Positions 30,617 to 39,795 of a stretch of DNA of 64,000 nucleotides are shown here, piece by piece. The stretch spans positions 3,946 through 67,945 of the forward strand of contig CAYSHL010000001.1 in assembly GCA_964430865.1 (NCBI GenBank). The letters are read 5' to 3'. The notes below the pieces were generated by a model. It made no database searches, was not told the DNA's origin, and saw only the letters and a program-made list of their open reading frames with translations. Every line of letters starts with the position of its first letter. Position 1 is the first letter of the stretch. The stretch is from an uncultured Sphingomonas sp. Lineage in GTDB: Bacteria > Pseudomonadota > Alphaproteobacteria > Sphingomonadales > Sphingomonadaceae. A program made the position numbers and the translations under genes.

Positions 30617-31402
30617 TCAAACCGAAATCCGCGCCCACACCGGCAAATGATCCGACGCCCGCTTCGACGCGGCGCTCAGGTGCACTCCGGCGGCCTCGAT
30701 CCTGAGGTCGGTGTGGACGATGATCCGGTCGAGACAGGCGACCGGCGCGCGCGAATGGAAGCTCGGGCCGGTCGGTGCGACCTGGAACTGCGGGCCGATT
30801 TCCTTGAGGCAGCCGTTGACCTCGCGCCAGTCGTTGGTGTCGCCCATCAGCACCGTCGGCATCTTGTGCACCCGAGCGGCGATCGCGTGGAGGATGGCGC
30901 GCATCTGCCGCCGCCGCCACAGCCCGCTCAAGTCGAGGTGCATGCCGATCACCCGCAATGGCTTGTCGCCGATCAGCAGCTCGGCCAGCACCGCTCCGCG
31001 CGGCTCCAGTGTCGGCAGGTCGATCGCCGAGACGTCGAGCACCCCGATATCGCGCTTCACCAGCAGCGCATTGCCGTGCCAGCCGATGTTGCGGGTGCGC
31101 AGCTTGATCAGTTTCTCGGCCTTGTCGCCGAGCCCGCCGGGGATGCGCTCGAGGGTGCGGCGGTGGCGCAGGCCGAACTGCACCGGCTTGTAGAGGCCGT
31201 GCTCGTCGATCAGCTCGTGGGGGACCGCCGAGGCGCGCCCGCCGAAGCGCTTGTCGGCTTCCTGCAGCGCGACGACGTCGGCGCCGATCTCGCGCAGAAC
31301 GTCGAGCACCCGATGCGGATCGCGCCGCCGGTCGGTGCCGATCGCTTTGCGCATATTGTAGCTGGCGACGGTGATGGTCGGCGGAGTGGGCGGTGTCGGC
31401 AT
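30617..31402 (-). CDS. Endonuclease/exonuclease/phosphatase (EEP) family protein, intact copy
   Basis: VASYN, VALQE, HLDL, MGDTN, LDRI, ASDHLPV. Confidence 0.92.
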   Translation of the reverse strand: MPTPPTPPTITVASYNMRKAIGTDRRRDPHRVLDVLREIGADVVALQEADKRFGGRASAVPHELIDEHGLYKPVQFGLRHRRTLERIPGGLGDKAEKLIKLRTRNIGWHGNALLVKRDIGVLDVSAIDLPTLEPRGAVLAELLIGDKPLRVIGMHLDLSGLWRRRQMRAILHAIAARVHKMPTVLMGDTNDWREVNGCLKEIGPQFQVAPTGPSFHSRAPVACLDRIIVHTDLRIEAAGVHLSAASKRASDHLPVWARISV

Positions 31403-31446
31403 TGCCGGCTCAATGGCGCGAACCGCCCGGCTTTCCAAGCTCCGCG

Positions 31447-32334
31447 CTAGGGGACGACGACCTCGGCGAGCACGCGCGCCCGGCCGTCCTGGGCAATCCG
31501 GCGGACGCGCATCCGGATCGGCTGGCCGCGGCGATAATCGCTCGCCTCGAGCACATAGACGGCGTCGCGGCTGGCGGTGACTCCGGTCGGGCCCCATCCC
31601 GCGGGGCTCGTCGCAACCACGCTGCGGCGCCCGCCGGCAAACCTCAGCACTCGCCGGTTGCGGTTCTCCGAGATGAGCACGCCGCCGGCCGGATCGACCG
31701 CGATCCCGAAGTTCTCGCGAGCGATGTTCTGCGCGAGGACACGCACTCGGCCCGCCGAATCGATTGCGCGGACGGCGTTGCCGTGCCGAAAAACGAAGCT
31801 GCCGTCGCGGGCCAAGGCGACGCCCGCGATGTCGTTGACCAGAGCGGGACGGAACAGCGCGTCGTCGCGTGCGCTCCCGAACAACCGCTGCGGCGCCCGG
31901 CCCGCACACAGGCGATGGACAAGGCTCGCCCCGCCGCGGCCGGCCTGGTCGGAGTGTAAGGTGCAGCCGTTGCGGTCACGGATGATGCCGACACCGCGCG
32001 TCAGGCGGGCGGCGGGCCCGAACCGGCGCGACAAGCGGTTTCCCGACAATTGCCAGACCGTCTCGACGTAGGATTCATCGGCCGAATTGTAGCGCGATTC
32101 ATCCCAGACGATGTTGCCGGAGGAATCGATGGCCATTGCATGGGTGTGGGTCCCGGGGTTGCTCCGAACCAGCCGCAGCCGATTGCCGTCGATGCGCCAG
32201 ACGCGGACGAGGTCGCTGAAATAGACCGTCCCGCCCCGGTCGATGACGATGCCGCGGGACGGGTGCGCGGCGGCGGTGGTTGCGGCGGGCAGGAGCATGA
32301 GCGCGGCGAGGACGGCCGTTCTGCGGCGAAGCAC
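31447..32334 (-). CDS. Secreted NHL-like beta-propeller protein
   Basis: Signal peptide (V)LRRRTAVLAALMLLPAATTAAA-HP; repeated GIxxDxxG blades; reading frame is continuous with the upstream EEP fragment to 32424. Confidence 0.75.
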   Translation of the reverse strand: MLRRRTAVLAALMLLPAATTAAAHPSRGIVIDRGGTVYFSDLVRVWRIDGNRLRLVRSNPGTHTHAMAIDSSGNIVWDESRYNSADESYVETVWQLSGNRLSRRFGPAARLTRGVGIIRDRNGCTLHSDQAGRGGASLVHRLCAGRAPQRLFGSARDDALFRPALVNDIAGVALARDGSFVFRHGNAVRAIDSAGRVRVLAQNIARENFGIAVDPAGGVLISENRNRRVLRFAGGRRSVVATSPAGWGPTGVTASRDAVYVLEASDYRRGQPIRMRVRRIAQDGRARVLAEVVVP

Positions 32335-36394: not shown

Positions 36395-36404
36395 CGGCTG
36401 TCCG

Positions 36405-37226
36405 TCAGCGGTCGACAACGACTTCCGATCCCAATGTCTTGCAATGCCGAAAGAAGGCAACCGACATCGCAAATCCACCGATGGCCAAGGCGACCCAGGC
36501 AATGCCCAGTGTCGCATCCGTTGCAACTCCCCTGAGGCTGGCGAATATGGTCATTGCGACCAGCGCCAATCCCATGGTGGTCGCTTTGACCAACACAAAA
36601 CCGGCCATCGCGAATCCCCAGGCTTCGCGCTTCCAGAGCTGAACGGCAGCCGCCAGCGCCAAGGGCACGACCACTCCAAGATCAAGCACGTATACAAACA
36701 CCGTCGGAGTGTTCGCCAGGACCACCATTTCGGGCAGCCTGCCATCGATGTAATAGGCCATAATCTGACTGCCCCAAAGGGCTGCCAGCACCAGTCCCAA
36801 GACAGCCAGAAACACTGCCGTTCCTCGGGCTGGGACCGCCCGGTCAAAGCTCTCCCGAATGATGTCGGGATCAATCCGGATAAGGGTCATGATCAGGGCC
36901 GCCCCGGTGAGACCGAACAAGGCGACGTACGCAGGGAAAAGAATGTTGAAGTGATAGCTGAATGCCGCGCCGGTGTAGGTGTAGGCCAGATAGCCGACCA
37001 AGCCGAGCCAGAGCAGCAGCATTCTGACCGAGCCGCGCGCGGCCTGAACCGCGGCAAGCAGCAAGGCCGGCAGAACGGCGAGCGTAATCAGGTCCTGACC
37101 GCGGTTCTGCGGGATTACCCACTGCGTCTCGCGATACACTTCGGGGGCGATCAAGCCCCAGCCCGCCGCCAGGAGGGCCAGCGCGCCCATTGCGTAGGTC
37201 AGCTTGACCGTCAACGCATCAAACAT
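36405..37226 (-). CDS. Multi-pass membrane protein, lower GC than the core genes
   Basis: About 8 TM segments, [19 protein letters not shown] overlaps the last codons of gyrB. Confidence 0.82.
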
Positions 37227-39795
37227 CCAAATTGGCGACGCTGAGGGCGTTCTCCTGGATGAACTCGCGGCGGGGTTCGACGACGTCGCCCATCAGCCGG
37301 GTGAAGATTTCGTCGGCGACGTCGGCCTGCGCGACTTCGACCCGCAGCAGCGAGCGGTTGGCGGGATCGAGCGTCGTTTCCCACAATTGCTCGGGGTTCA
37401 TTTCGCCCAGGCCCTTGTAGCGCGACACCGACAGCCCGCGGCGGCCGGCGGCGAGCACCGCGTCGAGCAGCTCGGAAGGCCGCGAAATCGGAATCGTCTT
37501 GCGGGTGGTCTCGGCCTCGATCGCCTCGGCGGCCTCGGCGGCGTCGTCCGCATTCTCGCCATCGAGTGGCTCGGGCGTTGGGGCAGCGGCTTCGGGAGCG
37601 GGCGCGGCGGCGCCCTTCTTGTGGACGCGCAGGGTCGACGGACCGGCGTAAGCGGGCAATTGCTCGGCGGCCAGCGCGTGCAGCTTGCGGGCTTCGGCCG
37701 AGACCAGGAAGCCTTTTTCGATGACATGGGCGTCGGTGACTCCGCGCCACAGCCGCTTCAAGACATAGCCGCCCTCTTCGGCGACGTCGCCGGTCCAGCC
37801 GGCCTCCGGGTCGGCGGCGTCGAGCCAGGCGGCGACGGCGGCGATCGCCTTGCCGCGGCCGGCGGAATCGAGCGTCGGCTTGAGCGCCCCGTTGATCGCC
37901 AGCGCCTCGACGATCGCCGGGTCGTACTTGCGCGGGACGTAGCTCATCAGCGTCCGCACCCGCCGCGCGTGCTCGACCAAAGAGCGCAAATCGGCGCCGC
38001 TGCGCTGGCCGTCGGGCGCTTCGAGCATCAGCCCGTCGAGCCCGACGTCGACCAGATATTCGTCGAGCGCGCTGTCGTCCTTGAGATAGACTTCGGAGCG
38101 CCCGCGGGCGACCTTGTAGAGCGGCGGCTGGGCGATGAAGAGATGGCCGGCCTCGATCAGGTCGGGCATCTGACGGTAGAAAAAGGTCAGCAGCAGCGTG
38201 CGGATGTGGGCGCCGTCGACGTCGGCGTCGGTCATGATGACGATCTTGTGGTAGCGCAATTTGTCGAGGCTGAATTCCTCGCGGCCGATGCCGGTGCCGA
38301 GCGCCTGGATGATGGTGCCGATCTCGCGCGATGAGAGCATCCGGTCGAACCGCGCCCGCTCGACGTTGAGGATCTTGCCGCGCAGGGGGAGGATCGCCTG
38401 GTACTGGCTGTCGCGGGCCTGCTTGGCCGAGCCGCCGGCGCTGTCGCCCTCGACCAGGAACATCTCCGACTTGGCGGGGTCCTTTTCGGTGCAGTCGTGG
38501 AGCTTTCCGGGCAGCGAGGAGATGCCCATCACCGACTTGCGGCTCGCCTCGCGCGCCTTGCGGGCGGCCTCGCGCGCGGCGGCGGCGTCGATGACTTTCT
38601 GGATGATCATCCGGGCGTGGGCCGGATTCTCCTCGAGCCATTCGGCGAGCTTGTCGGCGATCAGGCTTTCGAGCGGCTGGCGGACCTCCGAGCTGACCAA
38701 TTTGTCCTTGGTCTGCGAGCTGAACTTGGGGTCGGGCAGCTTGACCGAGACGATCGCCGTCAGCCCTTCGCGCATGTCCTCGCCGGTCAAATTGACCTTT
38801 TCGCGCTTCAGGGCGCCCGATTTCTCGGCGTAATTGTTGAGCGTCCGGGTCATCGCCGCGCGGAACGCGGCGAGGTGGGTGCCGCCGTCGCGCTGCGGGA
38901 TGTTGTTGGTGAACGGCAGCACGTTCTCGTAATAGGAATCATTCCACTCCATCGCGACGTCGATGCCGATCTCGTCGCGCTGGCCGTGGATGGCGATCGG
39001 GTCGGGGACCAAAGGCGTCTTGGCGCGGTCGAGATATTTGACGAACGCCGCGGTGCCGCCCTCGTAGAACAATTCGACTTCCCTGGGCTCGTCGTGGCGA
39101 GCGTCGACCAGCACCAGCCGGACGCCCGAGTTCAAGAATGCGAGCTCGCGGAAGCGGTGCTCGAGCCGCTCGAAGTCGAAGTCCATCGTCTTGAAGGTGT
39201 CGCTCGACGGCAAAAAGGTGACCCGCGTGCCGCGCTTGTCGGTCTTGCCGACCTTCTTCAGCGGCGCTTCGGGGACACCGTGGGCAAAGCGCATGAAATG
39301 CTCCTCGCCGTCGCGCCAGATGTTGAGCTCGAGCCATTCCGACAGCGCGTTGACGACCGACACGCCGACGCCGTGCAAGCCGCCCGAGACCTTGTAGGCG
39401 TTGTCGTCCGACGCGTTCTCGAACTTCCCGCCGGCGTGGAGGTGGGTCATGATGACCTCGGCCGCCGAGACGCCCTCGCCCTCGTGGATTCCGGTCGGGA
39501 TGCCGCGGCCGTTGTCCTCGACGCTGACCGAGCCGTCGGCGTTCAGGGTGATCAGGATCCGGTCGCAATGGCCGGCGAGCGCCTCGTCGATCGCGTTGTC
39601 GGAAACCTCGAACACCATGTGGTGGAGGCCCGAGCCGTCGTCGGTGTCGCCGATGTACATCCCCGGCCGCTTGCGGACCGCATCGAGGCCCTTGAGAACC
39701 TGGATGGAATCGGCGTCGTAGATGTTCGCGTTGGGGGTCTGATCGGGAACTTGATCGGGGCTTTGGTCGGGGGTCTGATCGGGGTCGGTTGCCAT
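37219..39795 (-). CDS. gyrB: DNA gyrase subunit B
   Basis: [49 protein letters not shown]. Confidence 0.98.

Follow-up and report, generated by a model that had tools for sequence, protein, structure and literature searches.

Three gyrB–EEP slot alleles in a Sphingomonas genome, probably stacked by additive gain

How do three unrelated cargoes come to lie in tandem between the same two genes, with fragments of those genes among them and no recombinase nearby? The question is raised by a stretch of 64,000 nucleotides (hereafter the window; GenBank assembly GCA_964430865.1, contig CAYSHL010000001.1, positions 3,946 to 67,945) from an uncultured Sphingomonas soil bacterium. Its metagenome-derived genome (2.4 Mb in 96 contigs, 97.5% complete) carries a membrane gene, a sulfur operon and a propeller-like gene between gyrB and a gene of the EEP family. 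We find that the feature is real and that it is well supported as a stack of alleles of one slot, with homology-facilitated illegitimate recombination (HFIR) or a circularised fragment as the route. Specifically, three gyrB–EEP alleles were probably stacked by additive gain, in which one homologous anchor was combined with one illegitimate join at microhomology on two occasions.

Order of the stack and its alleles in relatives

The order of the parts, obtained from open reading frames (ORFs), sequence, self-BLAST and Pfam and read on the minus strand, is gyrB, membrane gene, EEP 5′ half, gyrB 3′ stub, sulfur operon, a fusion of the first 33 EEP codons (EEP33) to the propeller gene, and intact EEP. 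Every part thus lies where a preliminary description of this DNA had placed it. The upstream flank and likely recombination anchor is the intact gyrB (37219..39819, minus strand; Pfam DNA_gyraseB, DNA_gyraseB_C and Toprim), and the downstream flank is the intact EEP with its promoter-like element (30617..31436, minus strand; ORF 31402-30617; Exo_endo_phos PF03372, E 1e-16). The same description held that each cargo is bounded by pieces of both flanking genes. This is so at the membrane/sulfur joint, where two stubs stand back to back, but the sole stub at the sulfur/propeller joint comes from EEP, and the propeller/EEP joint is stub-free. Its further remark that no integrase, transposase or tRNA is visible agrees with a family scan of the 13 slot and flank ORFs, which returned no integrase or transposase, and with the lack of any tRNA or tmRNA in the window.

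The three cargoes differ in kind. Cargo 1 (36405..37226, minus strand) encodes a 273-aa membrane protein; its ATG overlaps the last gyrB codons, and its GC content at third codon positions (GC3) is 0.74, versus 0.90 in gyrB. Pfam, Atlas and homologue names yield no family for this protein: it has no Pfam match, and its 157 homologues, the best others being 58–63% identical, are all named hypothetical. Cargo 2 (32520..35767, plus strand) is a six-gene operon in which Pfam recognizes ArsR (BigR-like), MBL-fold (Blh-like), YeeE-type, DUF6691, BLH_phosphatase-domain and TauE products, and the tauE stop overlaps the stop of the gyrB stub (CTAG). It bears a likeness to the bigR/blh sulfide-detoxification operon described in PMC5823870. 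Cargo 3 (31447..32334, minus strand) has a predicted exported product and an ORF in frame with EEP33, with a possible GTG start within the EEP33 joint. A weak NHL match (TEN_NHL, E 3e-4) is consistent with the beta-propeller label first given to this gene but lies under the Pfam cut-off, and we call the gene NHL/propeller-like.

Two of these cargoes recur at the same place in relatives. We fetched 160 loci by EEP protein, of which 150 were paired by pattern and 10 were unpaired; the paired loci collapse to 144 distinct contexts. The gyrB–EEP slot is empty in 128 of the 144, as it is in the closest relatives (L021-L027), and filled (gap >75 nt) in 16. Filled slots hold unrelated cargoes flush with both flanks, including mazEF, GFA, DUF2199, a LysR unit, a pullulanase, a cytochrome oxidase cluster, a 38-kb polysaccharide cluster and a CBS protein. 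The preliminary description had anticipated single cargoes in relatives, and both the sulfur operon and the propeller gene occur in this way. Locus L157 carries the six-gene operon as a clean gyrB–EEP allele, with 75–83% amino-acid identity, an identical tauE/gyrB stop overlap and colinearity at both ends. The propeller gene lies in the slot at L049, L118, L147 and L151, is a clean single allele at L049, L118 and L200, and has two other matches among 271 genomes of the genus (G134 and G163), both within the slot. Because two of the three cargoes occur singly in relatives' slot, ordinary recombination is the most likely way in which the stack was built up. The membrane gene would likewise have originated as a slot allele. 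A literature search that covered few subscription journals returned no description of the gyrB–EEP slot and no relevant paper for the genus.

Two neighbouring features deserve mention in their own right. A Fic-domain gene upstream of gyrB (39880-40564) consists of two overlapping ORFs of low GC (0.57), and a 26-nt inverted repeat at 30543-30608, where the ends of rpoN and EEP face each other, is one of many copies in the genome of a family resembling repetitive extragenic palindromes.

Because the genome comes from a metagenome assembly, strain variants with differing single cargoes might have been joined via the gyrB and EEP repeats. Logan contigs from two runs (X1 and X2, possibly the source data and possibly one single data set) match the window with 0 differences at 31332-35800, 35941-36362 and 36351-37255. 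The EEP half/gyrB joint lies inside one of these contigs (35941-36362) and the EEP33/propeller joint inside another, of 4,469 nt, each with 0 differences. Cargo contigs have depths of 13.4–18.4, close to those of the backbone (15–16), and the gyrB repeat has about double (roughly 26–36). This pattern is expected of a single genome that holds each cargo once, since strain variants would split the depth. In favour of a chimera, the entire stretch is spanned by no single X1 or X2 contig, both runs may be the source data themselves, and a 48-nt identical EEP stretch permits a different order of pieces in a k=31 graph. Moreover, the Logan contig over the gyrB repeat, at about 2x depth, departs from the window at 4 synonymous sites, where variant k-mers occur at 19–29x, between the expectations for one copy (1x = 15) and two (2x = 30). 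However, decayed EEP stubs and an EEP-to-gyrB fusion are not expected in real alleles, and scars analogous to the stack are present at lepA in one- and two-contig genomes (see below). An assembly chimera is an unlikely explanation of the stack, and we give the joining of strain variants very little credence. Two other runs (X3 and X4), which held 0.06 of the words and only relatives, were unused.

Stubs, joints and the route of gain

The divergence of the EEP stubs indicates where they came from. The EEP half (35985..36418, minus strand) covers codons of about 10-146 and may start at a TTG at 36418. It is 87.8% identical to intact EEP over 410 nt (36394-35985; E 3e-146, window self-BLAST). Codon differences comprise 36 synonymous and 12 non-synonymous changes, with Q47L, G110D and N111I among the latter, which corresponds to proportions of synonymous (pS) and non-synonymous (pN) differences of 0.35 and 0.043, a pN/pS of 0.12 and a binomial p of 8e-13. 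A dead local copy would decay without codon bias, and the pN/pS value therefore marks the half as a foreign allele and not a local duplicate. Judged by its codons, the half appears to be a relative's allele, formerly under purifying selection and now dead. EEP33, together with a promoter-like region (32326..32460, minus strand; codons 32424-32326), is 84% identical to intact EEP over 120 nt (pN/pS 0.19, p 0.016). It is the tail of the sulfur allele, because it is colinear with the operon-to-EEP junction of L157, promoter region included.

These results bear on a simpler account, in which a segment spanning the gyrB end and the EEP start was duplicated locally in tandem, then decayed and received separate cargo insertions. 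Such a duplication would accommodate a gyrB core that is identical over 200 nt and an EEP half whose nearest neighbours in the tree, though not firmly supported, are intact EEP and L022. However, pN/pS is 0.12, pS at 0.35 matches between-species distances, EEP33 and its promoter are colinear with the L157 sulfur allele, and the cargoes are slot alleles elsewhere. Local duplication is largely refuted by the codon values, and we regard it as extremely improbable. A phylogeny of the three EEP 5′ copies, proposed in the preliminary description, was run for the half copy, whose placement is unresolved (support 84/74), whereas EEP33 was left out as too short.

The gyrB stub (35764..35984, minus strand; about 73 codons) and the gyrB end form a 221-nt direct repeat that flanks 1.2 kb. 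In the assembly, the 200-nt core of the stub (35771-35970) is identical to the gyrB end, and the 8 differences fall at the edges, 4 at each, in a pattern that is reciprocal between the full gene and the stub. Full gyrB reads GLSVS at its 5′ edge, like L118, the host's sister, and ends with the membrane allele. The stub carries an ATC (Ile) allele, as do 11 of the 15 close loci listed, and its 3′ edge matches the sulfur allele. In trees, the gyrB region 38300-37440 is sister to L118 (support 98/97), as is the 3′ part of EEP (98/94).

The intact EEP looks patchy in comparison with L118 and L022, and is preceded by a promoter-like GGAAA-N16-CATT element. The putative EEP promoter motif resembles the EcfG consensus GGAAC-N17-20-GTT (PMC6599016). 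At the start of intact EEP (31402-31376), a 9-nt internal repeat relative to L118 may reflect slippage where DNA had recombined before.

Both illegitimate joints, as read from relatives' sequences, contain microhomology. The EEP half/gyrB joint (35979..35984, minus strand) is a 6-nt GCGGCC that can be read as either gene, and the EEP33/propeller joint (32326..32334, minus strand; GTG CTT CGC) matches the EEP codons for V-L-R at 8 of 9 nt. Each falls in the range of 3–10 bp expected of one-anchor joining. Furthermore, cargoes sit flush with gyrB or EEP in relatives' clean alleles, which leaves homology on one side, and the joint position varies (stubs of 24–410 nt in the slot and repeats of 44–1148 nt at lepA). 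No joint hairpin occurs among the 25 longest inverted repeats listed, and the cargoes abut the gene stubs directly.

The stack may have grown as follows, with incoming DNA from relatives added and the resident allele not replaced. First, a propeller allele would have arrived by clean replacement. Second, a gyrB-sulfur-EEP(1-33) fragment would have been anchored on one side, either side being possible, while its other end was joined where the propeller gene begins. Last, a gyrB(3′)-membrane gene-EEP(1-148) fragment, probably a circle closed at GCGGCC, would have crossed over once inside the 3′ end of gyrB; repair or later conversion would have homogenised the core shared by both gyrB copies. 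Entry of the DNA by transformation or a gene transfer agent (GTA) is possible; the genome carries genes for ComEC, DprA, Ku and LigD and a GTA-like cluster. A head-tail cluster resembling the alphaproteobacterial gene transfer agent lies at G000:C8:54900-70300, with a PF05065 match for the capsid and other genes named by eye.

The preliminary description had proposed that slot alleles were added rather than replaced, and this holds up well: two of the three cargoes are single in relatives, the EEP stubs have diverged as functional genes do, and a chimera is unlikely. Its more specific proposal, circularised fragments integrated by single crossover, fares unevenly. Given the reciprocal gyrB edges, a circle and single crossover would fit the membrane-gene module, and a conspecific donor or HFIR would fit the edge pattern too. 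In contrast, the sulfur/propeller joint, where a gyrB stub is lacking, looks like a one-anchor HFIR joint.

Several points weigh against this history of additive gain. HFIR is rare and occurs 100 to a million times less often than homologous recombination (PMC3240628). Relatives differ from the gyrB core at 9–22 of about 207 nt, yet the copies in the assembly are identical, so that a conversion step or a conspecific donor must be assumed. The argument from reciprocal edges, as they appear in the assembly, rests on 8 nucleotides, and the donor is left unnamed because the tree leaves the EEP half unresolved (84/74). Neither 199 other genomes of the genus nor the 160 slot loci yielded the membrane gene. 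The end points of the EEP stubs in the window and in L001/L101, at about codons 26-33, are only a few codons apart, and the gyrB tails of L155 and L171 are alike (24 nt); a preferred site would give the same result in both cases. Finally, an integrase may be missed in a 96-contig assembly.

Gene-end duplications across the genus

Duplication of a gene end is the classic footprint of site-specific integrative elements. The stubs might accordingly be relics of elements that targeted the gyrB 3′ and EEP 5′ ends, restored each gene by their own copy and later lost the integrase. Slot stubs outside the window lend this idea some substance. A roughly 75-nt EEP 5′ stub precedes mazEF in L001 and L101 and reflects one shared ancient event (their gyrB genes are only 84% identical); with the window's, this makes two independent events in which an EEP stub stops close to codons 26-33. 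In two lineages, represented by L155, L171 and L173, a gyrB tail of about 24 nt follows a similar 20-nt spacer; a shuffle-based stub scan flagged L155 but not L171 or L173, whose tails were spotted by eye. A Tn7-like element lies in the EEP promoter of genome G077, and guaA, a known integrase target, has a duplicated 3′ end in the window's genome.

However, slot stub lengths (about 24, 75, 99, 221 and 410 nt) span 24–410 nt and give no constant att crossover, and two different target genes would be needed. The cargoes are also the same as those of stub-free alleles flush with the gyrB stop; mazEF, for example, is a stub-free slot allele in L071, L208 and L215. Among 54 of 124 candidate slot-cargo ORFs scanned (extra filled loci were fetched by handle), the sole integrase match lies inside the Tn7-like element of G077, which leaves a 5-bp target duplication and not gene stubs. 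The window's genome has only two PF00589 matches, both Xer-like and on contigs other than the window's, and has no PF07508 or PF00239 (serine recombinase) match. Scores common to all 72 genomes searched, among the matches listed, suggest that this pair is XerC and XerD. Thus, neither an own integrase nor a constant att crossover was found for the stack, and relics of site-specific elements are an unlikely source of the stubs.

The G077 insertion (L114-L115) is a case of its own. This 31.5-kb element sits just after gyrB, has inverted ends and encodes TniB/AAA, two TniQ proteins, a 665-aa putative transposase without a Pfam match and an internal tyrosine recombinase. It possibly represents a gyrB-directed Tn7-like attachment site.

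Stacks such as this one are rare. An EEP N-terminal profile run over 271 genomes has two or more matches in 18, the window's genome included, and three EEP starts occur in one. Of 16 of these genomes that were followed, one (G102) has a true in-slot stub; the others are accounted for by broken contigs, a complete second locus, frameshifts or weak paralogues. EEP stubs are undercounted in this way, because the profile missed the stub of G004. A gyrB-end pattern occurs twice in 7 of 244 genomes; besides the window's genome, these are contig overlaps (G092 and G135) or second gyrB loci (G205, G252, G265 and G236). Genome counts for the genus, such as those for the EEP profile, the membrane gene, the propeller gene, the gyrB-end pattern and lepA, may include as many as four unpublished genomes (G020, G108, G110 and G111), on which no individual claim depends.

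Duplicated gene ends also occur at other loci. The preliminary description suggested a genome-wide self-BLAST for them, which returned 114 repeat pairs, mostly internal repeats, paralogues and elements resembling repetitive extragenic palindromes; two of the 12 pairs inspected, at lepA and guaA, are such duplications. The host's lepA (G000:C5:14062-14800) has three 3′ ends, of which the live one has a GC3 of 0.66 versus 0.90 upstream. The extra copies (151 nt at 78% and roughly 60 nt at 82%) are followed by a low-GC island, with no integrase there. Two or more lepA ends are present in 18 of 93 genomes with the lepA motif, and in 15 of the 93 they lie within 6 kb on one contig. The repeated ends (L223-L236, L243 and L244) measure 44–1148 nt and include cases from one- and two-contig genomes. 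The two longest are a repeat of 1148 nt at 97.5% around sugar-biosynthesis genes in G058 and one of 542 nt at 96.9% around Rhs-repeat genes in G197, where the last piece runs into lepA; no integrase was found among 15 ORFs scanned at these two. Several short displaced lepA copies, in L226, L228, L229, L231 and L235, carry a 40-nt palindromic element, with core AGTCCGGGGGACT, at identical codons, a pattern that suggests a link between insertion of this element and a replacement 3′ end.

At guaA (G000:C15:40058-40998), a decayed 107-nt duplicate of the 3′ end (82%) surrounds a single low-GC gene of 241 aa that is nuclease-like by eye.

Three such loci in one genome, along with lepA 3′ ends repeated within 6 kb in those 15 of 93 genomes, could also be taken as the work of a dedicated but unrecognised machinery, host-encoded or acting in trans, that inserts small cargoes at the ends of gyrB, lepA and guaA and copies a target stretch of varying length. 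Insertion with long target duplication is described as widespread and free of other mobile elements (PMC2853133), and the cargoes meet or overlap the gyrB stop to the exact base pair. This precision is, however, explained by selection: 121 of the 128 empty slots have a putative promoter motif of the GGAAC type at the stop of gyrB, and so one neutral position is left for a cargo. Known recombination routes suffice, and no candidate protein was found in a search confined to integrase families. We judge a dedicated machinery to be decidedly improbable.

Relation to known systems and meaning

Additive gain is known in principle as a process, and this locus is a well-resolved example. In the laboratory, HFIR uses 3–10 bp of microhomology, and circularisation with a single crossover leaves duplications of 109–950 bp; in Escherichia coli this circle route yielded partial duplications of genes at about tenfold higher frequency (PMC3240628). 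The stack shares with these routes one homologous anchor, a short GC-rich microhomology joint and a partial gene duplication, of 221 nt here. Unlike the laboratory events (PMC3240628), which involve one insert and in which HFIR usually deletes DNA of similar size, the stack reflects two natural events with little resident DNA lost. Transformation, too, can generate duplications (PMC3784515).

HFIR has been proposed for polarised, integrase-free arrays, whose resemblance to integrons was pointed out (PMC5361080). In the type VI secretion effector-immunity arrays of Vibrio cholerae and the orphan modules of Rhs and contact-dependent inhibition systems, modules are added behind a conserved upstream anchor and displace older ones downstream, gene-end remnants occur without an integrase, and clean replacement is the commoner outcome, all as at this locus (PMC5361080). 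In contrast to those arrays, the cargoes here are related neither to one another nor to the housekeeping genes that anchor them, and there is no evident immunity-type selection to retain older modules. Integrase-less hotspots of horizontal gene transfer are similar in having a fixed core-gene interval with many unrelated cargoes and no mobility proteins, and the gyrB–EEP slot fits this description; such hotspots turn over by double-crossover replacement within species (PMC5635113), whereas the slot documents a rarer additive outcome, genus-wide.

The resemblance to integrons has narrower limits. Integrons combine IntI, attI and attC sites and hold their cargoes in tandem. The stack likewise has tandem cargoes and a probable newest-first polarity, but there is no IntI next to an attI, joints fall at no fixed site and stacks are rare. 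The integron-like array envisaged in the preliminary description is not supported as a system, because the stubs differ in length and just 1 of 271 genomes has a triple stack, with no fixed crossover site and no dedicated recombinase.

Insertion with long target duplication, on which Nobusato et al. (2000) reportedly worked, offers a further comparison. Like the stack, it involves cargo free of mobility genes, flanked by duplications that are long, of variable length and slightly diverged and in many cases include a start or stop codon (PMC2853133). The 221-nt gyrB repeat around 1.2 kb fits the definition by a direct repeat >30 bp and an insert <20 kb, and no integrase accompanies it; the stack lacks restriction-modification cargo and a purely target-copied repeat, the EEP stubs being foreign. 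The published cases involve restriction-modification genes and one duplicated target (PMC2853133), whereas two genes give stubs here and those of EEP are donor alleles.

A broader reading, which we hold to be doubtful though conceivable, is that the genus has a genome-wide routine of recombinase-free accretion at housekeeping-gene ends (gyrB, lepA and guaA), in which linear DNA of relatives, delivered by its GTA or competence system, would be circularised by Ku and LigD and integrated by one crossover into polarised, newest-first arrays. If true, such a routine would explain mechanistically how insertion with long target duplication comes about, an explanation so far missing. For stacking by additive gain as such, the locus provides a natural record of integrase-less hotspots growing and not merely turning over, and the lepA scars in near-closed genomes make the genus practical for asking whether HFIR or end-joined circles underlie additive gain.

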